A DNA stretch of 32,000 nucleotides from an uncultured Chloroflexia bacterium (GCA_963704755.1 OY969938.1:390001-422000); one strand, 5' to 3'; shown: positions 5,024 through 32,000, counted from the first letter of the stretch. Notes: generated by a model from the letters alone, not told the origin. A program made the numbers and translations.

Positions 5024-5341
5024 TTATTTACTCCGCATCTTGATGTATTTTTCAACCTCGGCACAGGATTGTTCGAATTGTTTGACCAATTCTTCATCGC
5101 TCCCTCGAAAACGGCGGATCGTCTGTTTTGCGCAAACTGTGCAGCCGTGCATACCCCTGAACGAATCGATACTACAACCCTGACAACCTCCCAGGCGGAC
5201 CATCATCAAAGTAAAACCCGCCTGCTTGACCAGGTCAGCATCGCTCGACCCTGCTTCGTCAACCAGCCTTTGCCAGACAACTCCACGTAACCCACGTAAT
5301 TGCGGAATAACGCGTGGAGGGAACATTAAACTCTGTGTCAT
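5024..5341 (-). CDS. Hypothetical small protein with two CxxC pairs (zinc-ribbon-like)
   Basis: 105-aa ORF with ATG at 5341. It contains CQGC-x10-CTVC. It sits in the same-strand block between nuoI and the Mrp-like gene. No family was recognised. Confidence 0.5.
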   Translation of the reverse strand: MTQSLMFPPRVIPQLRGLRGVVWQRLVDEAGSSDADLVKQAGFTLMMVRLGGCQGCSIDSFRGMHGCTVCAKQTIRRFRGSDEELVKQFEQSCAEVEKYIKMRSK

Positions 5342-5391
5342 TATTATACATGTCTGTCAAGTCAGATGCAAAGTGGATATTTCATGCCGAA

Positions 5392-6000
5392 TTATGCAGC
5401 TTTTTTGGCGGCTGCCTTCATAGCTTCCTTCTCGGCTCTGGCTTTTTCCTCAGCAACGTAATTCGTTGGGCGGATCGCTGCATAGTACGAAACCGGCTTG
5501 GACAGCTTTTCCATGTTGTAAATATGCTCGCTCATGCGGTCATACGATGCGATTTCGTAGTCATGGTCCATCTTGATCGCATCGAAGGGGCAGTATTCGG
5601 CACAGAAACCGCAATTCATGCAAATATCCACATCGATATAGAACTCCGCCGGCTCCGGGATCGGCTTACCTGTTTCAGGATCCGAGGTACGTACGATCCA
5701 GATGCATTGCGGCGGGCATACTTTCGCACAAATTCCGCACGAAGTACAGCGGGAGTGTTTCTCGCCATTTTCGTCTTCTTCATAAAGCAAGAAGGGGATA
5801 TAGCGAAACTCTTCGGGTACCGGCATTTTCTCTTCCGGGTACTGGATGGAAAAAATACCGGTTACATCGGTATTCTGGCGCAACTCGATCCCCTCTTTTG
5901 TATAGTAGCGCTTCTTACCGCGGCGGATATCCTCGATGTAAGTCAGCGAAAAGTGTCTAAAAGTCGTCCATAGACCCCGTAAAATTCCAGATCCATTCAT
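5392..6000 (-). CDS. nuoI: NADH-quinone oxidoreductase subunit I (2x[4Fe-4S] ferredoxin)
   Basis: 202 aa, with GGAGG upstream of the ATG at 6000. It carries two ferredoxin motifs, CTSCGICAKVCP and CMNCGFCAEYCP. It follows nuoCD directly. Confidence 0.85.
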   Translation of the reverse strand: MNGSGILRGLWTTFRHFSLTYIEDIRRGKKRYYTKEGIELRQNTDVTGIFSIQYPEEKMPVPEEFRYIPFLLYEEDENGEKHSRCTSCGICAKVCPPQCIWIVRTSDPETGKPIPEPAEFYIDVDICMNCGFCAEYCPFDAIKMDHDYEIASYDRMSEHIYNMEKLSKPVSYYAAIRPTNYVAEEKARAEKEAMKAAAKKAA

Positions 6001-9214: not shown

Positions 9215-9242
9215 AGTAAAGCCCGGGCTTTCAACCCAAGGG

Positions 9243-10510
9243 AACGCCTGCCTGGCGTATCCCCGGCTTTGAAAGCCGGACTACGCTACCAAAACACCGG
9301 TCCGGCCAGGCGCATGGAAAGGGCAATTTGATATTTCGACGTTCGGGCCGGTCTCCAGACCGAGCCCGCTCTTCAACACGAGCGTATCATTAAACCAACA
9401 TCCATCAGGTCGATTCCGACCCGGCTAAGCGCTTACCGAGCAGGATTTTAGCTAGGGGTGTAACCCTTGCCAAAAGAGAGACCCGCGCAGGTGGGTCTTT
9501 GTGTATTCGTAGGTGCAGCTTTAGCTGCAACCGGTTAGGTCAACGCATTAGGTTCAACCGCAATGCCTGATTGGCCAAACGCATTCCCGGCTTTGAAAGC
9601 CGGGCTACGCTACCAAAACACCGATCCGGCCAGGCGCATGGAAAGGGCAATTTGATATTTCGACGTTCGGGCCGGTCTCCAGACCGAGCCCGCTCTTCAA
9701 CACGAGTATATCGTCAAACCAACATCCATCGGGTCGATTCCAACCCGGCTAAGCGCCGGCCGGGCAGGATTTCTGGCTAGGGGTGTAACCCTTGCCAAAA
9801 GAGAGACCCACGCAGGTGGGTCTTTGTGTATTTGTAGGTGCAGCTTGAGCTGCAACCGGTTCGGTCAACGCATTGGGTTCATCAACCGCAATGCCTGATT
9901 GGCCAAACGCATTCCCGGCTTTGAAAGCCGGGCTACGCTACCAAAACACCGGTCCGGCCAGGCGCTTGGAAAGGGCAATTTGATAATTCGACGTTCGGGC
10001 CGGTCTCCAGACCGAGCCCGCTCTTCAACCTGAACATATCTCAAACCAACATCCATCAGGTCGATTCCAATCCGGCTAAGCGCTGGCCGGGCAGGATTCT
10101 GGCTAGGGGTGTAACCCTTGCCAAAAGAGAGACCCACGCAGGTGGGTCTTTGTGTATTTGTAGGTGTAGCTTGAGCTGCAACCGGTTCGGTCAACGCATT
10201 GGGTTCGTCAACCGCAATGCCTGATTGGCCAAACGCAATCCCGGCTTTAAAAGCCGGGCTACGCTACCGAAACGCCCAATCTGAGCCTACGCTTGGAAAG
10301 GGCAATTTGATAATTCGACGTTCGGGCCGGTCTCCAGACCGAGCCCGCTCTTCAACATGAAGATATCGTCAAACCAACATCCATCAGGTCGATTCCAACC
10401 CGGCTAAGCGCCGGCCGGGCAGGATTCTGGCGATGGGTGTAACCCTTGCCAAAAGAGAGACCCACGCAGGTGGGCCTTTGTGTTTTCGTAGGTGCAGCTT
10501 TAGCTGCCAA
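9243..10510 (+). repeat. Tandem array of four ~325-nt hairpin-rich non-coding units (possible tandem structured RNA genes)
   Basis: The landmark hairpin CCCGGCTTTGAAAGCCGGG recurs at 9262, 9586, 9914 and 10240, giving periods of 324, 328 and 326 nt. Copies are roughly 90-95% identical by eye. The last copy is truncated near 10510. The strand assignment is tentative and rests on G-U-compatible stem substitutions. Confidence 0.9.
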
Positions 10511-10542
10511 CAATCAACTCGAATCAGGCGAGGGGTGGGGTC

Positions 10543-23585: not shown

Positions 23586-23761
23586 GTTAGCGCTCCTTTT
23601 TGCACACATGTTCTAGGGTTTTAATATACGATTTTTGGTCTATTTAGTCAAGGATGAAAATCAATGAACATTTGTATTTAAACAGAAAAGGAAAATGCTA
23701 AAAATTTTCACCAGGCGACTAAGTAAAAATCAAGGATAGCAAATAATAATCAGATCTGAAA

Positions 23762-24688
23762 TTAATTAATTTTTTTCAAAGTAAGGTTTTTAAATTGCGT
23801 GGTCCAAGTAAAAACATAATTACATGATTCCCCCGGCCAACTAGCCATTGATTCAGTCGTTATTGACAAGGACAGATCGTCACCCCAATCTGAATGGGAA
23901 ACCCTGGCTAATTCAAAGGCGGACAAATCAATATACTTTCCATCGATTGTTGCAGAAATATATTTTTGCGTCCGTAAATCAATAATTAGATCGAACGAAT
24001 GCCAGTTCGTATCAGGCTTAATATTGATTCCAGTGTCGATAAGGAACAAACTCTTTGTGTATATTTTAATTTTGCCATAATCCGATGTCACCCAAGGATT
24101 TAAATCCCAGTAAAGTACTCCTTCTTGTGTATAACGGTCCGCTTGAAAAAGGCTGTTTCTGCCATCCCATAATTGGACCATGAAGTGGATAGCTTGGGGA
24201 TTATTAATCTGCATAACGTTCGGCTTAGGAATTGTCGGCAACCGAATAAATCCGCTGTACTCAAGTGTATCAAGCTGAATAGGTTGGCCGTTTGGATATG
24301 TTTCTGTAAATTTCTTATAACCAATTGCATTTATATAGGTATTAATCAGATCTGGATTCGAAGTTATTTCTCCATGATCTGGGAAAGTTCGAATTGATGC
24401 TTCTTTTTCTGAACACGGGCAATCGCTTGTACCCCCAGGATTGCATTCGGCAAAGATAGAATGGCCAAAAAGATTCGTTGAAGAGTACAACTCCTCCGGT
24501 GGTTGATAATTTGACAGTACTAGGGGAAGGAAGACATCCCCGGTTGAAGAACTGCTCACGTTTCTCTGATTCAAAATTGCAAAAACAAGAACCAAGCTTA
24601 TTATAGCTAAAACAAAGCTCGTTTCAGGTAAATGTGGTTGATTTTTTAAAATGAACCGAATTTTTTTCACTTTATGCAACCCTTTCAT
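23762..24688 (-). CDS. Hypothetical membrane-anchored or secreted protein (orphan, AT-rich)
   Basis: 308-aa ORF with ATG at 24688. It has an N-terminal TM segment FVLAIISLVLVFAIL. No motif was recognised. Its composition differs clearly from the flanks. Confidence 0.6.
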   Translation of the reverse strand: MKGLHKVKKIRFILKNQPHLPETSFVLAIISLVLVFAILNQRNVSSSSTGDVFLPLVLSNYQPPEELYSSTNLFGHSIFAECNPGGTSDCPCSEKEASIRTFPDHGEITSNPDLINTYINAIGYKKFTETYPNGQPIQLDTLEYSGFIRLPTIPKPNVMQINNPQAIHFMVQLWDGRNSLFQADRYTQEGVLYWDLNPWVTSDYGKIKIYTKSLFLIDTGINIKPDTNWHSFDLIIDLRTQKYISATIDGKYIDLSAFELARVSHSDWGDDLSLSITTESMASWPGESCNYVFTWTTQFKNLTLKKIN

Positions 24689-24800
24689 GTGCCTAGTCTA
24701 CTTACTTTCTTGTTTGACGCGATAAAACATCTTCCCTTCAATTCATTCTACAAATTTTGTTCAATTGTTATTTTTTTTTGTCCGAATTTATAATTGAACA

Positions 24801-24914
24801 ATTATCACAAAACGGGCTGGTTCAGAAGTTAGGAGTGTTTTTATGGTTTTTCGCGTGCGAAGCACGCGAAAAACCATAAAAACACTCCTCTTTTTTGTGG
24901 CAGCAATGTAGTTA
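24801..24914. repeat. Nested-palindrome (MITE-like) element, copy B
   Basis: A perfect 28-bp stem with a 3-nt loop lies at 24831-24889. Its core TTTTTCGCGTGCGAAGCACGCGAAAAA is identical to copy A. The flanks align with copy A. The bordering hexamers are TGAACA (24795-24800) and TGAATA (24915-24920). Confidence 0.6.
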
Positions 24915-25103
24915 TGAATATTTTTAAAACGCTTTCTCAAAAGGTTGTTTATAGCTTCCACAATTATAGACTTGAAGAAAGGTAAAACAAGCGCCAAACA
25001 AAATGAAAAAGAAAGAAATTTCTTATTCCATTTCACAATTCATCAAAAAGTAACCTCTTTCAGGTAAAATAGCCTTAATCCCTGAATCTGGTGGCGCAGC
25101 CCT

Positions 25104-26409
25104 ATGTACTTCGATATTGCAGCATTTATCCGCTATAATTTTCGCGCTTTTTTCAAAACCAAAGGGAAACATTACCGCCTGACGTCGAAACGTATGCTGG
25201 TCCTGTTCATCTGGCTGATCCTTTACATTCCGGCCCAGGTGATTAACCGCATCAGTTTCCTCCTGGACGACCTGTTTTTCCCCCGTTACCGCCAACAAGA
25301 AGTCAAACAGCCCATCTTTATCATCGGTAACCCGCGCAGCGGCACCACCTTTTTACACCGGCTGATGTACAAGGATACAGATTCCTTCACCGCCTTCGCG
25401 GTTTGGGAATTGATGTTTGCCCCTTCCATCACCCAGCGCAAGCTGATTTGGGCCATCCAAAAGGCCTGGCGCTGGTTCGGCAACCCGGCCGGCGAGGTGA
25501 CCGGCACGATCAACGAGCGCCTCAAGCACCGCCAGGGCAACTCGGCCCACTCGGTCAAGATCAACGACGCCGAAGAAGACGAGCACATTCTCATCCATAG
25601 CTGGACCAGCGAGTCACTCTGGTCGATTTACCCCTTCCGGGATGAGATGCTGCCTTATTTCTTCTTCGACCGCGATATCCCCCCGGCCAAACAGCGCAAG
25701 ATCATGGCCTTCTATAAAAGCATGATCCAGCGCCACATCTACGCCCACGGGGGAAACAAAATTCTGCTCTCCAAGAACCCCTCCCACTCGGCCAAGCTGG
25801 CCGCCTTGAGCGCAACTTTTCCGGATGCGCACTTTATCAACCTGGTGCGCACCCCCTTCGAGGCCATGCCTTCCATGCTGGACTACATGTCCACCGGCTG
25901 GAAATTATTTTGCGACCCGCTCGAGCCGTATCCCTTCAAAGAAAATTTCTTCGAGGTGATGCGGTTTTATTACACCTACCCGGCCGAATACTTCAAAGAT
26001 AAGGAAGACTGCTGCAGCTTCATTAAAATATGAAGAGCTGGTGCAGCACCCGGATGAGATCGTCGAGGATTTGTACGACTGGCTGGGCCTGGATTACACC
26101 GACAGCTTCAAAGCCGTGGTGGAAGCCGAGACCCGGTCCGCGCACCACTACCACAGCGGGCACAAATATTCGATCGACAAAATGGGCCTGACCGAGGAAA
26201 AAATCTTCACCGAATTCGAGGAAGTGTTCAGCTACTACGAGTTCGACGCCCAGCAGTTCGAGCTGCCCGATCACAACATGTTCTGGCAGATCAACAACTG
26301 GCCCAAAGCCTGGAAGCTCCAGCGCCAGCAGCGCCAGCATCACCGCATGCTGCGCCGGGCAGCCAAACGGGAACAGCGCCAGGAAAAACGCGGCCAGTCG
26401 GTGGCGTGA
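25104..26409 (+). pseudogene. Sulfotransferase-family gene interrupted by a 1-nt frameshift
   Basis: The PAPS loop IIGNPRSGTTFLHRLM lies in ORF 25104..26033. The expected continuation YEELVQHPDEIVEDLYDWLGLDY is in the +1 frame (26029 onward). The shift maps to the A4 run at 26025-26028. Confidence 0.7.
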
Positions 26410-26412
26410 GGA

Positions 26413-26807
26413 TCAGCCCAGATATTGCTGCAAAAACGCGGCCATTTTGGCCTGGGCGTCGCTTGCGTCCTCGGAGGATTGCAAGGTGAACCCGTGGACC
26501 GCGTCGGGATATTCGGGATATTCGGTCATGACCCCGGCCGATACCAGCATGCGGCAGTACTTCAAACCCTCGTCGTGCAGCGAATCCCGCCCCCCAGGAT
26601 GAACCCATCCCCGCGCAGGTCGAAGAACAGCGCGGCTTTCTCCGGACGCTCGAACCCATACCACAAAGTCCGCACCCGGCCAAATTCCGTATCGACGAAC
26701 CCCGCCTTGCCCCGCCGTTTGTGGGTGATGCTCACCAGCCCGGAGACCAACCGCTGAAATTGTTTACCCCTGCGGATGGATTGTTCGCGGGTGCGTGGCT
26801 CTGGCAT
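26413..26807 (-). pseudogene. Remnant of an alpha/beta-hydrolase fold-3 (HSL-type esterase/lipase) gene with a large internal deletion
   Basis: The N-terminal piece ends at a degenerate HGGG box, LRGDGFILGGG (26586-26807). It joins out of frame to the C-terminal piece RDSLHDEGLKY...YPDAVHGF (26413-26595). The GxSxG nucleophile region is missing. Confidence 0.65.
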
Positions 26808-27183
26808 GATGATACTTGCCTCAGGAAGGTGTTGCTTGGTTTTCGGATAGTATACCCGGAAATTATTTGTTGCCAGAAAATATACATATCTCGGAATAGT
26901 GTTGCCTGTTCACTTAATTTTGATCCAACAATAGCACTAATACGTCTACAAACATATTTTTAATCACAACCAAGTCAAGCTTTAATTTTCACTTCGTAAT
27001 TTAGCTGGTACTTGTTATTCTGATATTATTAAGTAAAGACAAATTCGATAATTCGTAAAACACCAAAAAATCCTCAAAAACGGCTAAATTTTTTCGTCTG
27101 GGGTGTAAAATTCTTTAGGAACCATTCTATAACTATAACTAAACACAATTATAGAAGGCCTGGATTCTACCAAGGGTTTTCGA

Positions 27184-28005
27184 ATGTACTCGTCCTCAGA
27201 TCATCTACAATGGCTTACTAAAACTAACGAAGACTTGCATACATCCGATGGGAAGGCCATTGAGGTTTTTGAGTTCCGTTGTAATCATGATGAAACAATT
27301 ATGTCGGCTTGGGCCAAACATTTTCGAAATCACTATTGTTCTGATAACGAAATTGATGTTTTGAGGTCAGGAACACCTTTTTCAAGATCAGATTATTTGA
27401 TTCATTTGAAATTCCCCGATCCTTCAGTCGCACCAGGACCGAGCACTCGCGCAGGTGATTTTGGAGAAATTCTTGTTGCGGATTATCTTGAATACCTGCT
27501 CGGATATTGGGTACCCCGAATTCGTTATAGAAACAAACCCACTCGCAATGAATCTACAAAAGGTTCGGATGTTTTAGGAATTCATTTTTTTCGCGATGGG
27601 GAATCCTCTCCACAGGATATCCTAACTATCTTTGAAGCTAAAGCACAGTTGAGCAAAAAAGAAGCTGAATCTCTTCTCCAAAAAGCGGTCAATGATTCCA
27701 AAAAAGATTTCCAAATTAGAAAAGCTGAAACTTTAAATTATTATAAAGAAATATATCTGGCTCAAAAGAACACTGCCGCTGTTGAGAGAATTGATCAATT
27801 CCAAAGCCCCTTAGATAATCCATATAGGGAAATTTCTGGAGGCGCTGCATTAATTTCAACCAGGTATTTCGATGTTAATCAATTAGCCTCAACAGATGCG
27901 CATCTTCATCCAAATTATTCAGAACTTCAGTTAATTGTCATCCGTGGCGAAAATTTGATGGATCTGGTCCACGAGCTTTATCAGAGGGCCGCTGATGAAG
28001 CCTGA
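27184..28005 (+). CDS. PD-(D/E)xK-type nuclease-like protein, HamA (DUF1837)-like
   Basis: 273 aa. The candidate catalytic residues are E95 in GDFGEILVAD, D129 in KGSDVLGIHFF and E151-x-K153 in LTIFEAKAQ. It overlaps the helicase gene by 11 nt. It is AT-rich. Confidence 0.65.
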   Translation: MYSSSDHLQWLTKTNEDLHTSDGKAIEVFEFRCNHDETIMSAWAKHFRNHYCSDNEIDVLRSGTPFSRSDYLIHLKFPDPSVAPGPSTRAGDFGEILVADYLEYLLGYWVPRIRYRNKPTRNESTKGSDVLGIHFFRDGESSPQDILTIFEAKAQLSKKEAESLLQKAVNDSKKDFQIRKAETLNYYKEIYLAQKNTAAVERIDQFQSPLDNPYREISGGAALISTRYFDVNQLASTDAHLHPNYSELQLIVIRGENLMDLVHELYQRAADEA

Positions 28006-31000
28006 ACGCAATTCTTTACGCTTGCTTAGTATTACCCAAGCTAAAGCGAAAATGTATGAATATGATGTGCCATTAGAAAATCATATCGTTATTCCACAAG
28101 ACCCGGCCAGATTGTTCACATTAACCATTGGGCTTTTAGGTGATCTTGCAGCACAAGTAAATTCAAAAGAAAGTAACCCCCATTCGATCGAAGAATTGGA
28201 AAAAGTCCTATTTTTTTCTTCCAAATTCTTTGACTCATATTTCAATACGAGATTGGACTCTGATAATGATCCTTATCTCCTGCTACTAGGCTCAGCCTCT
28301 TATTATTTATCCCAGTTGCCTGGTAGTTCATTACTGTTGGCAAGAACCCTTCATGCTAAAGGAGATCTGGATATCGGGGGAATGGGCCTGGAAAAATTAT
28401 TGCTCTGGATTTTACGTGGGGAATTTACAACGGCCATAAATATTACGGAAGGTGAATATGCCGAAGATATTAATCGGTTGTTTGATTTGTATCAAGGGTT
28501 TTATTCTTCCGGGGAAAACGCAACCGAGTTATTTGATACCGCAGATCATTTACGAACATTAGCCTATGCAGAAGGAACCCCCCGCCAGTTACTTCTCGCT
28601 GACATCATTGGAGCGATAACCAGAAAACGTTATGATAACTCAACCTGGGTTTCTCTGCCTGCCTATACTGGATTACCTTTGGATACATGGCGTGCAACAT
28701 TTATGAACCCAGATTTTAAATTGAAGGAGCTGTGGCCTGCTCAAAAATTGTTGGGTGAACGAGGAGTTTTTAGTGGAAGATCGGCTGTTATTCAAATGCC
28801 CACCAGTGCCGGAAAAACCAGAGGGGCGGAGATCGTCATTCGAAGCGCTTTTCTTTCAGGCCGTGCATCTTTGGCGGTGGTTGTAGCGCCGTTTCGAGCA
28901 TTATGCCATGAAATACGGGATAGCCTTTCGAATTCACTCCGCTCAGAAGGAATCAGGGTAAATGAGCTTTCGGATGTCTTGCAAATCGATTTTGATTTAC
29001 ATGCCTTTCTGGATCAAAGACAAGTGCTCGTCGTTACGCCCGAAAAATTGAATTATGTCCTAAGGCATTCTCCCGAGCTAGGAGAAAGAATCCAGTTGAT
29101 TATTTATGACGAAGGGCACCAATTCGACAATGGAACCCGCGGAATAACTTACGAACTCCTTTTAACCTCTTTGAAAGAAAAGCTGCCGGAAAATGTTCAA
29201 TCTGTGTTGATTTCCGCTGTAATTAGCAATGGTGAAGCTGTAGGCCGTTGGCTAAATGGTGAAAACTCCGAATCTATCGTCGGAACAAATTTGTTGCCCA
29301 CTTATCGTAGTCTGGCGTTTGTGAGTTGGTTATTACCATTAGGGCAATTAGCTTATGTGAATCCAGATAATCCTAACGAAAGAGAATTTTTTGTACCAAG
29401 GATCATTCGAGAAGTCACACTCCAAAAAAGAAAAAAAGAAAGGCTTGAACGCATCTTTCCTGAAAGAGGGAGTGTCAGCGATATTGCACTCTATTTAGGG
29501 CTAACCGTGGTTAATAAAGGCAGTGTGGCCATTTTCTGCGGCACAAAAATTACCATTGCATCCATTCTAAATCGGCTTATTGACATATATTCAAGAGGTT
29601 TATCTTATCCTTTACCAATTGAAATCTCAGATTTTGTTGAAGTTGAAAAATTATTTCATCTAATCAGTTTTAACATGGGCTCAGATTCTCCGATTGCAGT
29701 ATGCTGTAGGATGGGCATATTTACGCATCACAATAGCGTCTCACAAGGAATCCGACAATCTGTTGAATATGCAATGAAGATAGGTTCGATTAAGTTTGTA
29801 ATCTGTACATCAACTTTAGCTCAAGGAGTGAATTTGCCTATCCGATATTTAATTATAAATAACACTTATCAAGGGAAAGAAAAAATTAAAGTTCGGGATT
29901 TTCAAAATTTGCTTGGGCGATCCGGTCGTTCGGACATGCATACTGAAGGCAGCATCATATTTGCTGATCCCAGAATTTTTGACGATACATTAGTACAGAA
30001 GGATAGTCGGCGCTGGGATGAGACAATCCATTTGCTTGATCCTTCAAATTCGGAAGAATGTAACAGCACGTTAAAATCTCTTTTTGATTCGATAGACGTG
30101 CAAATCGAATATCAAGGGGATTTAATATCCGTTAGCTTAAGCTTTGATGAAATTTCTCGATTTTATCCACAAGGTTACGAAGCTGTTTTGCATTACGCTA
30201 GTCAAAAAGTTCCTGATTTTGATAGACGGCAGGAATTGGTAAGTACTCTTTTTGATAGGGTCTACTGGAAATTTGAAATTTTAGCTGGTATTGAAAGTTT
30301 TCTATTAGCTCATTTTGAAGATGCTAACATAGAGATAGATGATGTACACATGGTAGAGCTTGCAAGAGGTACATTCGCTTATTTCCTGGCAGACCAAAAC
30401 CAACGCACCGAAATCGAATCACTATTTTTAATGCTGGCTCATAATATTGAACAGAAAATTCCAGAACCCAGATTGAAAGTTTTATTTGGAAGGACATTAT
30501 TAGGTGTTCATGATGCTCTTATCATTCAAAGCTGGCTTTTTGATAAAACAAATAATCTTCTGTCTGCTGATGGGGACCTTGAATTATTAAATACCTTGTG
30601 GCCAATTTTATTGAATAATATTAAAACTGGTTCATTTCAAAAATGCAGCCAACGAGAATCTCTCTTGCTTATTGCAACTGAATGGATAAATGGAGATCCA
30701 TTTGTTGAATTATTGAACACACTCCATTCTAATAACATCCAAATGGCATGGGGAAGGTTTTTTCGCAATTACGATATTGACCACGTGGTGGATATTTGCG
30801 AGAATGGCCTTTCTTATGAGGGGGGGTTGATCGTTAGTGCCATAATAGATTTCTTATCGGACAATCAAGATGACCTCGGGATTGCAGTCCTCATAAATAA
30901 CCTCCAAAACTTATTGAAACGATTGAAATATGGTTTGGAATCCCCACAAGCGATTGTGTTATATGAAATGGGCTTTTCTGATAGAGTTGTTTCCGGCCAA

Positions 31001-31138
31001 CTTGCCGGCATCCTTGAGGACCTCCCTGCTGATAAAGAAACAATTAGACTTGCCCTTCGTAGCCGACGAGAACAGGTTTTTCGAGTTTTGGATACATTCC
31101 CGCAATATTTTTCCGAAGTATATAGAGGAATTATTTAG
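27995..31138 (+). CDS. SF2 DExH helicase (Ski2/Hel308-like core), HamB-like, with long N- and C-terminal extensions
   Basis: 1047 aa. The helicase motifs are MPTSAGKT (28796-28819), VVVAPFRAL, VLVVTPEKL, DEGH (29108-29119), LISAV, CTSTLAQGVNLP and LLGRSGR. Confidence 0.85.
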   Translation: MKPERNSLRLLSITQAKAKMYEYDVPLENHIVIPQDPARLFTLTIGLLGDLAAQVNSKESNPHSIEELEKVLFFSSKFFDSYFNTRLDSDNDPYLLLLGSASYYLSQLPGSSLLLARTLHAKGDLDIGGMGLEKLLLWILRGEFTTAINITEGEYAEDINRLFDLYQGFYSSGENATELFDTADHLRTLAYAEGTPRQLLLADIIGAITRKRYDNSTWVSLPAYTGLPLDTWRATFMNPDFKLKELWPAQKLLGERGVFSGRSAVIQMPTSAGKTRGAEIVIRSAFLSGRASLAVVVAPFRALCHEIRDSLSNSLRSEGIRVNELSDVLQIDFDLHAFLDQRQVLVVTPEKLNYVLRHSPELGERIQLIIYDEGHQFDNGTRGITYELLLTSLKEKLPENVQSVLISAVISNGEAVGRWLNGENSESIVGTNLLPTYRSLAFVSWLLPLGQLAYVNPDNPNEREFFVPRIIREVTLQKRKKERLERIFPERGSVSDIALYLGLTVVNKGSVAIFCGTKITIASILNRLIDIYSRGLSYPLPIEISDFVEVEKLFHLISFNMGSDSPIAVCCRMGIFTHHNSVSQGIRQSVEYAMKIGSIKFVICTSTLAQGVNLPIRYLIINNTYQGKEKIKVRDFQNLLGRSGRSDMHTEGSIIFADPRIFDDTLVQKDSRRWDETIHLLDPSNSEECNSTLKSLFDSIDVQIEYQGDLISVSLSFDEISRFYPQGYEAVLHYASQKVPDFDRRQELVSTLFDRVYWKFEILAGIESFLLAHFEDANIEIDDVHMVELARGTFAYFLADQNQRTEIESLFLMLAHNIEQKIPEPRLKVLFGRTLLGVHDALIIQSWLFDKTNNLLSADGDLELLNTLWPILLNNIKTGSFQKCSQRESLLLIATEWINGDPFVELLNTLHSNNIQMAWGRFFRNYDIDHVVDICENGLSYEGGLIVSAIIDFLSDNQDDLGIAVLINNLQNLLKRLKYGLESPQAIVLYEMGFSDRVVSGQLAGILEDLPADKETIRLALRSRREQVFRVLDTFPQYFSEVYRGII

Positions 31139-31421
31139 AAATTCATGTCAAGACGATCAATCAATTAATTTTTTATAGCAAGAATGCTGTGATCCATTTT
31201 TGATTGCAAAATTCTTTTCTTATTATCCAATGTCTGAAATTCCCAATAATCTAATCGCCAAATTACAGAAATAAAATTTTTAATAATCATTGTCTCTGAT
31301 TGGAAAACTTATTCACACAATAAACCTTCAACAAGCTTGCGAATGCAAATTTAGGTGAGTTTTCCCCTCTTCCTGCGTTATTAATATAAACATCTCAACA
31401 CATCGGAGAACCGCATGGACA

Positions 31422-31613
31422 ATGGCCGACCATGGGACCTGGCCAATGCTGAAACCTTCAGCCTGGTCTTTCAATGCCCCACCTACAGGTGTTCCGCTAC
31501 CTCTACGGGCTGGTAGCCTGTTTATCGATATCACCGTGGCCCAATTCCCCGGCGAAAACAAACCATACTTCACTCAAGCCGATCTGCTCGAGTTCGCCCA
31601 ATCTTTCCGGTAA
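31422..31613 (+). CDS. Short GC-rich ORF, possibly the 3' remnant of a gene truncated at the island border
   Basis: 63-aa ORF that begins where GC content rises again. A 24-bp hairpin follows it directly. No family was recognised. Confidence 0.3.
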   Translation: MADHGTWPMLKPSAWSFNAPPTGVPLPLRAGSLFIDITVAQFPGENKPYFTQADLLEFAQSFR

Positions 31614-31665
31614 GTAAACAAGAACACGATGCCCGGCTTTTGCCGGGCATCGTGTTCTTGTTTAC
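31614..31665. terminator. Perfect 24-bp hairpin between convergent genes (putative bidirectional terminator)
   Basis: The arms are GTAAACAAGAACACGATGCCCGGC and GCCGGGCATCGTGTTCTTGTTTAC, with a TTTT loop. There is no external T-run. Confidence 0.5.
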
Positions 31666-31690: not shown

Positions 31691-32000
31691 TTATTTCCCC
31701 GTACCAATCCATTGAGCCGAATGGGTCACCTGGTCGATCAGGTCGGGCAGGTCGCACAGCGCCTGGGGCGCTGGATCCGGCGAACCGCTCAGGCAGCCGC
31801 CGTAGTTGCTGACGGTCTTGGTCTGCCCGTCCTGGGTGAAGGATGTGATCTGGGTGGGCAGGTCGGTCACCGGGGCTTTGTATTCGTCTTTCAGGTTGAA
31901 ATAATCCGCGGCCGTGAAGGCATCCACGAGCTGCTGCACCTGGGCGGTCGTGATGCTCCCGGTTTGCTCGCCGGTCACTTGCACGTTGGCGCTGCCGTTA
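31691..32000 (-). CDS. Hypothetical protein, 5' end outside the window
   Basis: The open frame runs from the window edge to the stop at 31691. The C-terminal sequence is ...NYGGCLSGSPDPAPQALCDLPDLIDQVTHSAQWIGTGK. Composition is GC-rich like the host. Confidence 0.55.
   Translation of the reverse strand, partial: NGSANVQVTGEQTGSITTAQVQQLVDAFTAADYFNLKDEYKAPVTDLPTQITSFTQDGQTKTVSNYGGCLSGSPDPAPQALCDLPDLIDQVTHSAQWIGTGK

Follow-up and report, generated by a model that had tools for sequence, protein, structure and literature searches.

Two genes on the + strand, hamA and hamB, lie between positions 27,184 and 31,138 of a 32,000-nucleotide (nt) stretch of DNA (the window, that is, the whole stretch analysed) from an uncultured Chloroflexia bacterium (GCA_963704755.1 OY969938.1:390001-422000). 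The two open reading frames (ORFs) encode 273 and 1047 amino acids (aa) and overlap by 11 nt at 27995-28005, as a preliminary, tool-free description of the locus had reported. Based on sequence and predicted structure, we are highly confident that they constitute a complete, apparently functional type I (I-A) Hachiman system on a horizontally acquired two-gene island of ~4.6 kb. Hachiman itself is already known as a standard two-gene system. The genes are laid out as follows.

27184..28005, + strand: hamA, 273 aa, ATG start; DUF1837-only HamA, by analogy with relatives a putative PD-(D/E)xK-type effector nuclease
27995..31138, + strand: hamB, 1047 aa, ATG start; Ski2/Hel308-like superfamily 2 (SF2) DExH helicase, by analogy the putative sensor/activator subunit
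27995..28005, + strand: hamA/hamB overlap, 11 nt, ATGAAGCCTGA; the same geometry in ~68 of 72 loci

hamB is not a chance ORF, as it extends over 3.1 kb in DNA of 39.6% GC, and thousands of homologues exist for both products. A Shine-Dalgarno-like element, GAGGG, is located 7 nt 5' of the hamB ATG. Because this element occurs together with the 11-nt overlap, translation of hamB is probably coupled to that of hamA, and such coupling would fit a 1:1 HamA-HamB heterodimer.

The product of hamA matched Pfam PF08878 (HamA/DUF1837) with 40.9 bits (E 2.8e-10; gathering score 25) and the PADLOC profile HamA1 (PDLC00161) with 351 bits (E 1e-105), residues 2-272 lying on positions 2-270 of the 271 in the profile. 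Its 1889 homologues are mainly ~272 aa long, and some of them are named HamA at NCBI. In the Protein Data Bank (PDB), the best sequence match was 8vx9_A, HamA of E. coli ECOR31 (E 2e-4 for the single sequence, 2e-6 when a profile was used). Three motifs of the putative active site could be aligned with that protein, GDFGE with GDLGE, GSDVLGI with GEDVIGI and FEAKA with TEAKS, and are listed here.

27457..27468, + strand: HamA D92-F-G-E95 (GDFGE, residues 91-95), first acidic motif of the predicted active site; aligns with ECOR31 GDLGE (D81, E84)
27568..27570, + strand: HamA D129, predicted catalytic aspartate in G-S-D-V-L-G (GSDVLG from residue 127); aligns with ECOR31 D119
27634..27642, + strand: HamA E151-A-K153, predicted (D/E)xK catalytic motif (FEAKA from residue 150); aligns with ECOR31 E138/K140

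By script, we located E95, D129 and E151-x-K153 at the positions given in the preliminary description. In an alignment with 19 diverse homologues (53-62% identity), G91, D92, F93, E95, D129, E151 and K153 were invariant; the alignments of both proteins are so constructed that the window proteins keep the family-invariant columns. The corresponding residues have been studied in three relatives. In ECOR31 HamA, E138 and K140 are replaced with alanine in PDB entry 8vxy, and this mutation abolishes defence; in Streptococcus thermophilus HamA, D90, E93, D127, E147 and K149 are essential (PMC13064477); and E150A/K152A substitutions in the type I-A HamA of E. coli DEC14B led to loss of both defence and nuclease activity (PMC11914072). 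In addition, K118-x-x-R121 of the window HamA aligns with K108-x-x-R111 of ECOR31 HamA, which is situated within the HamB-contacting loop 102-117 (PMC12278908). That K118-x-x-R121 is the published (R/K)xx(R/K) interface motif could not be confirmed from the text of the paper, which gives no residue numbers.

HamB matched the PADLOC profile HamB1 (PDLC00188) with 1244.6 bits, residues 1-1044 being aligned to positions 1-1034 of 1037. The best PADLOC matches of the pair were HamA1 and HamB1, not HamB2. Pfam searches placed DEAD at residues 259-411 and Helicase_C at 575-646, both above their cut-offs, together with a match to ResIII, and found no domain in residues 1-258 or 647-1047. The SF2 motifs I, Ia, II, V and VI named in the preliminary description were all located by script. 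These motifs, the core that contains them and the regions on either side are the following.

28727..29989, + strand: HamB RecA1/RecA2 core, residues ~245-665, placed by motif positions, Pfam and PDB alignment
28796-28819, + strand: HamB motif Q/I, MPTSAGKT, residues 268-275, with K274
From residue 295, + strand: HamB motif Ia, VVVAPFRAL
29108-29119, + strand: HamB motif II, DEGH, residues 372-375
From residue 604, + strand: HamB motif V, CTSTLAQGVNLP, of the TSTLAxGVNLP type
29909-29929, + strand: HamB motif VI, LLGRSGR, residues 639-645
27995..28714, + strand: predicted HamB N-terminal bundle, residues ~1-240 (boundary approximate), with 11 helices and no strands in residues 5-237 of the AlphaFold2 model
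30002..31135, + strand: HamB C-terminal region, residues ~670-1047, mainly alpha-helical with two short beta-hairpins in the AlphaFold2 model

The best PDB sequence match of HamB was 8vx9_B, the 1174-aa HamB of ECOR31 (E 7e-51), with residues 245-674 aligned to 306-728. Essential residues of this core have been reported in two relatives: G272/K273/T274 in DEC14B HamB (PMC11914072) and K275/D375/T606 in S. thermophilus HamB (PMC13064477). The NCBIfam Hel308 models (NF040935 and related) gave 99-127 bits against cut-offs of 887-1216, and they matched only the RecA1 region, with the best stretch at 243-424. Since these equivalog scores are about one-tenth of the cut-offs and are limited to the RecA1 region, HamB is Hel308-like but not a Hel308.

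The preliminary description had considered the size of the helicase unusual. It had estimated ~265 aa before motif I, which is close to the 267 found, and ~390 aa after motif VI, which falls short of the actual 402. The size itself is ordinary for a large subfamily for which models and annotation already exist: the end-to-end HamB1 profile has 1037 positions, ECOR31 HamB is longer, and among the 3119 homologues found at E <=1e-20, the best 120 are 1024-1062 aa long and show 46-55% identity over 97-100% of the query. In a diverse 16-member alignment, invariant columns were found across residues 1-240 (37 columns) and across 670-1036.

To compare folds, we searched the PDB with Foldseek, using the AlphaFold2 model of HamB (mean predicted local distance difference test (pLDDT) 80.1, predicted template modelling score 0.76). 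The top three matches were chains of ECOR31 HamB, 8vxa_A, 8vx9_B and 8vxy_B, with query-normalised template modelling (TM) scores of 0.72-0.73 over 1100-1160 columns (E 1e-27 to 7e-31). Hel308, Hjm and Pol theta came next, at TM ~0.46 when normalised to the query and 0.6-0.7 when normalised to the target; Hel308-type chains are ~650-800 residues long and do not have the N-terminal bundle. The core that can be aligned in sequence (~430 of the 1047 residues) could account for a TM score of at most ~0.41. Because this value and the ~0.46 of Hel308-type chains are both well below 0.72-0.73, the superposition must include the extensions. The model therefore makes it most likely that the N-terminal extension is the published HamA-binding helical bundle (NAH/TPR-like) and the C-terminal extension the published winged-helix (WH*)/C-terminal helical (CAH) region. 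Both the NAH and the WH*/CAH domains of HamB are described in PMC12278908, and the role of NAH also in PMC11914072. That no domain had been recognised in either extension reflects reading without tools and not a feature of the sequence itself. An OB-like barrel is absent from the C-terminal region of the model, which has only the two short hairpins past residue 670; an OB fold has been reported only in the ECOR31-type subgroup, and its lack is the norm outside that subgroup (PMC13064477).

Linkage of the two genes was examined with one genome per species. HamB relatives are encoded in 457 genomes, and the best 80 loci come from Chloroflexota, Planctomycetota, Desulfobacterota, Bacillota, Verrucomicrobiota, Acidobacteriota, Bacteroidota, Campylobacterota, Spirochaetota and other phyla. 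The count was limited to the 72 of these loci with at least 850 nt upstream of hamB, which were searched by tblastn with the window HamA. In 71 of the 72, a full-length hamA homologue was found directly upstream of hamB and in the same orientation, and in the remaining one (L012) hamA was present in pieces. Judged from tblastn coordinates, the overlap geometry was as in the window in ~68. Among plasmids, tblastn gave 18 full-length matches, and on plasmids of B. thuringiensis and Leptospira the neighbouring gene is named 'Hachiman antiphage defense system protein HamA' in RefSeq. No match was obtained by tblastn against 50,697 phage records.

Three of the loci deserve separate mention. On an IncY E. 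coli plasmid (L082; CP083496.1, 3001-6158), the annotation divides hamB into three ORFs. In a metagenome-assembled genome of Oleidesulfovibrio (L012, ~5194-6000), the best hamA match covers residues 1-120 only, and the gene appears to be split. From these decayed copies, it follows that such cassettes are also lost by pseudogenisation. On plasmid pBMB232 (L081; 1919-2705 and 8225-11126), hamAB adjoins a nucleotidyltransferase/HEPN pair (toxin-antitoxin-like), a P-loop NTPase and a tyrosine recombinase, a neighbourhood of defence and mobility genes, whereas the chromosomal copy of the window stands alone.

The base composition of the cassette differs sharply from that of its surroundings. GC content is 0.395-0.396 in hamAB, and GC content at third codon positions (GC3) is 0.31-0.34 there versus 0.66-0.83 in the neighbouring genes. 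Sharp GC transitions at ~26,820 and ~31,400 delimit the island of ~4.6 kb, whose edges outside the genes are given below.

26820..27183, + strand: upstream AT-rich intergenic region, left island edge; GC falls from ~0.6 to 0.28-0.33 between 26,780 and 26,960
31139..31400, + strand: downstream AT-rich flank, right island edge; GC 0.26-0.39 from 31,121 to 31,420, and 0.5-0.56 again at ~31,400

The foreign composition, as seen in GC3, identifies the cassette as horizontally acquired. The hamAB promoter is presumed to lie in 26820..27183, in which we found no sigma-70-like site on the + strand; no terminator-like site directly follows hamB. The rest of the window is of the housekeeping kind, including a NuoC/D fusion, an Mrp/ApbC-type Fe-S ATPase, an M20 peptidase, multihaem cytochromes, an ABC-F ATPase and a flavodoxin. 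A defence island was considered and rejected: PADLOC searches of ten neighbouring ORFs gave only generic ATPase matches to the ABC-F protein. Around the cassette we found no tRNA, no Rfam element and no flanking repeats of any significance, whether direct or inverted, and none of the neighbours is an integrase or transposase. Because neither another defence gene nor any of these elements is present, the cassette stands alone as a minimal insertion and does not belong to a defence island.

Other features were observed in the same window. A second low-GC patch extends over 23,600-25,100 (GC 0.24-0.46, GC3 0.36) and was probably also acquired horizontally. It contains an ORF (23762-24688, - strand) of 308 aa that has a hydrophobic segment at its N-terminus and matched nothing in Pfam or PADLOC. 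The 96 homologues of this ORF (38-59% identity) are all annotated as 'hypothetical', and some are fused to a type IX secretion system (T9SS) sorting tail (PF18962), PEP-CTERM (PF07589) or GH16, which suggests an unannotated family of secreted or cell-surface domains. At 25104-26409 (+ strand), a +1 frameshift near 26,005-26,035 seems to divide a Sulfotransfer_3 gene into a 309-aa ORF ending at 26033 and, in the next frame, a 122-aa ORF from 26041 that carries the conserved C-terminal part; the gene is either a pseudogene or the product of a sequencing error. At the left border of the island, 26413-26807 (- strand) holds an alpha/beta-hydrolase remnant, of which an 83-aa ORF matches only positions 168-209 of 210 of Abhydrolase_3. 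In another frame, an overlapping 81-aa ORF (26562-26807, - strand) without a Pfam match gives the unverified impression of a degenerate N-terminal HGGG esterase region. This remnant is probably an internally deleted pseudogene. On the other side, a perfect 24-nt inverted repeat with a 4-nt loop (GTAAACAAGAACACGATGCCCGGC / GCCGGGCATCGTGTTCTTGTTTAC) is found at 31614-31665, between a 63-aa ORF (31422-31613, + strand) and a converging DUF6438 gene (31691-31984, - strand); it probably acts as a bidirectional terminator for genes of the host and does not belong to the island. Far upstream, ~1.3 kb of normal GC content (9215-10542) contains no ORF of at least 120 aa on either strand and gave no Rfam match.

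The preliminary description had named the locus a Hachiman HamA/HamB cassette and had proposed to examine it with Pfam models, PADLOC, Foldseek and a co-occurrence survey. The name is borne out by the Pfam HamA match, the PADLOC matches to HamA1 and HamB1, the sequence matches to 8vx9, the fold matches of HamB and the linkage in 71 of 72 loci. The Pfam models DUF1837, DEAD and Helicase_C all scored above their cut-offs, both PADLOC profiles were matched end to end, and hamA homologues did co-occur directly upstream of hamB. Foldseek supported the HamB part (8vxa, 8vx9 and 8vxy) and gave less for HamA, as described below.

The pair has the features of Hachiman type I: a DUF1837 HamA, a Ski2/Hel308-like HamB, adjacent and co-oriented genes, and no HamC (DUF3223), of which Pfam and PADLOC found none in the flanking ORFs. 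An NAH domain is indicated at the level of predicted fold, by the all-alpha residues 1-240 and the whole-length TM score. Because HamA is DUF1837-only with intact, conserved PD-(D/E)xK residues and HamC is lacking, the cassette belongs to type I-A in the scheme of PMC11914072, a clade comprising 86% of HamA sequences. Two other classes were tried and rejected. The window HamB lacks the C-terminal OB-like barrel of the ECOR31-type subgroup ('III-A' of PMC13064477) and is 127 aa shorter than 8vx9_B; and the window HamA, with 273 aa, no extra domain and intact catalytic residues, does not fit AbpAB/type I-B.

Among the characterised systems, DEC14B type I-A (PMC11914072) resembles the window in its DUF1837-only HamA with an intact (D/E)xK site. 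A HamA of ~272-273 aa followed by a HamB of ~1040-1050 aa is a layout common to the window, DEC14B type I-A and pBMB232-type loci. The essential residues of DEC14B, E150/K152 in HamA and G272/K273/T274 in HamB, are one position off E151/K153 and G273/K274/T275 of the window proteins, and this residue numbering, together with locus length, would place DEC14B in the same subfamily. DEC14B HamAB protects against seven double-stranded DNA (dsDNA) phages and degrades DNA non-specifically (PMC11914072). Identity of the window proteins to readable relatives is ~46-55%. pBMB232 of B. thuringiensis (NZ_CP010578.1) likewise has a 273-aa hamA overlapping a 1050-aa hamB by 11 nt, and its HamB is 46% identical to that of the window over 100% of the length. 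Unlike the B. thuringiensis plasmid loci, the window copy is on the chromosome of a GC-rich host, and no defence or mobility genes adjoin it. A relative on an E. coli plasmid has a 272-aa HamA with E151-A-K153 that is 55% identical to the window HamA.

ECOR31 HamAB (8VX9, 8VXA, 8VXC, 8VXY; PMC12278908) shares with the modelled HamB the predicted domain order of N-terminal bundle, RecA1, RecA2, WH* and C-terminal helical region, but ECOR31 HamB exceeds it in length by 127 aa and terminates in the OB-like barrel that the window model does not have. In the S. thermophilus 'type III-B' system (PMC13064477), HamA D90/E93/D127/E147/K149 and HamB K275/D375/T606 are nearly collinear with D92/E95/D129/E151/K153 and K274/D372/T605-T607 of the window. 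Neither the S. thermophilus HamB nor the model of the window HamB has an OB domain, and the numbering by which the two are likened suggests that they belong to one subfamily. Streptococcus systems are fused to a repressing PezAT toxin-antitoxin operon (PMC13064477), whereas no such genes adjoin the window cassette. AbpAB of E. coli K-12 (type I-B, 8ZUE) also combines a DUF1837 protein with a Ski2-like helicase. However, AbpA has an extra N-terminal Cap4 nuclease domain and has lost the DUF1837 catalytic residues (PMC11914072), unlike the window HamA, and AbpB, at 729 aa, matches the window HamB weakly (E 3e-9). Archaeal Hel308/Hjm and the human Pol theta helicase domain share with HamB the Ski2-like DExH core and the TSTLAxGVNLP-type motif V, but have neither an N-terminal HamA-binding bundle nor a partner nuclease.

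Complex formation, trigger, nuclease activity and defence phenotype of the window system would follow those of its homologues, and the scheme given here is taken by analogy from characterised relatives. hamA and hamB would be co-transcribed and coupled via their overlap, giving a 1:1 heterodimer in which HamA docks on the N-terminal bundle of HamB. On intact dsDNA, HamAB would stay quiescent. Upon phage replication or DNA damage, free 3' ends or single-stranded DNA (ssDNA) would enter the HamB core (K274, D372-E-G-H375), leading to ATP binding and hydrolysis, and the ATP-driven movement of RecA2 may be relayed to the N-terminal bundle so that HamA is switched on. Through its putative PD-(D/E)xK site (D92, E95, D129, E151, K153), HamA would then degrade phage and host DNA without sequence specificity, resulting in abortive infection. 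For the activation step, two models have been published: HamA is released from HamB (PMC12278908), or HamA is active only within the complex and is stimulated by ATP binding (PMC13064477, PMC11914072). Anti-phage activity has been demonstrated in three relatives, ECOR31 (PMC12278908), DEC14B (PMC11914072) and S. thermophilus (PMC13064477).

Several points weigh against the assignment of the cassette to a functional type I-A Hachiman system. The locus is known from sequence and models alone. HamB shows only ~19% identity to the solved ECOR31 HamB, and in the profile search of HamB against the PDB, coverage stayed at 243-671, the extensions being not detectably similar in sequence; with an alignment of the core only and ~19% identity, the equivalence of the extensions thus depends on predicted structure. 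For HamA, the stretch alignable to 8vx9_A was 87-164 with the single sequence and 87-140 with the profile. A Foldseek search of the PDB with the HamA model (pLDDT 87.8) produced one credible match, 8zue_A, the type I-B HamA of E. coli (probability 0.96, TM 0.45, E 8e-3). It did not retrieve 8vx9_A, and Mus81, Shedu and McrC appeared at probabilities of at most 0.08. The nuclease assignment is therefore based on family models, motif alignment and conservation and not on the fold search. The promoter and terminator scan of the region gave matches at chance (shuffle) level only, a point that concerns the presumed promoter. Finally, the published activation models are in conflict, and the present data do not discriminate between them for the OB-less subfamily.

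With these points in mind, we weighed three other explanations of the locus. The preliminary description had left room for a divergent subtype or a distinct nuclease-helicase system, in which novel N- and C-terminal domains of the helicase would have another function. Such a system could be suspected from the blank Pfam results in HamB 1-258 and 647-1047, from the confinement of sequence alignments with solved HamAB to the RecA core of HamB and the catalytic core of HamA, and from the absence of the OB-like barrel seen in ECOR31 HamB. However, the existing HamB1 profile of 1037 positions is matched end to end with 1245 bits (HamA1, 351 bits), the best 120 homologues are of the same length, the extensions carry family-invariant residues, and the whole chain superposes on ECOR31 HamB at TM 0.72-0.73. 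The lack of an OB fold has, moreover, already been reported as the norm outside the ECOR31 subgroup (PMC13064477). This explanation is already largely refuted, and we consider it extremely improbable. Hardly less improbable is that HamB is a housekeeping Hel308-like DNA-repair helicase which, with its partner nuclease, processes forks or damage instead of acting in phage defence. Hel308 and related NCBIfam models do match the RecA1 region, Hel308, Hjm and Pol theta rank directly after HamB in the fold search, and functional parallels between HamB and Hel308 as well as activation by DNA damage have been published. Against this stand the equivalog scores (99-127 bits, with cut-offs of 887-1216), the foreign composition of a lone small island, the patchy distribution across many phyla and on plasmids, as for mobile defence genes, and the anti-phage activity of the three relatives.

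The cassette might also be a silent or decaying remnant in a locus that gathers pseudogenes. Its neighbours include damaged genes (the frameshifted sulfotransferase and the truncated alpha/beta-hydrolase), no promoter or terminator was found above chance, and broken relatives exist, with hamB in three ORFs on CP083496.1 and hamA apparently split in L012. Yet both ORFs, of 273 and 1047 codons, are intact although stop codons arise easily in such AT-rich DNA; all catalytic motifs and, within alignments built around these proteins, all family-invariant residues are present; and the overlap and the Shine-Dalgarno-like element are preserved. Decay is therefore as poorly credible as a distinct system. 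A type I-A Hachiman system remains by far the best explanation of the cassette. Within it, we regard as unlikely, though less so than any of these three explanations, that the OB-less ~272/~1040-aa subfamily holds something new: an activation unlike the 'release HamA' of ECOR31 (for example, HamA active only in the complex) or another DNA-end preference arising from the missing OB fold. The same low probability applies to a separate possibility, that the cassette, which seems to have moved as a bare unit into a damaged-gene locus, hints at an unrecognised route of defence-gene insertion.

The cassette is thus one more case of a widespread, well-characterised anti-phage system, which tools of the PADLOC type would call automatically. 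Set in a region otherwise devoted to housekeeping functions, it is a clean illustration of a minimal defence cassette with foreign base composition. In the PDB copy searched, the OB-less Hachiman subfamily is without a solved structure. Since the solved complexes of HamAB belong to distant subgroups, such a structure would close a small gap. As the cassette also shows, a HamB of ~1040 aa with helical N- and C-terminal extensions is the norm and not an anomaly.

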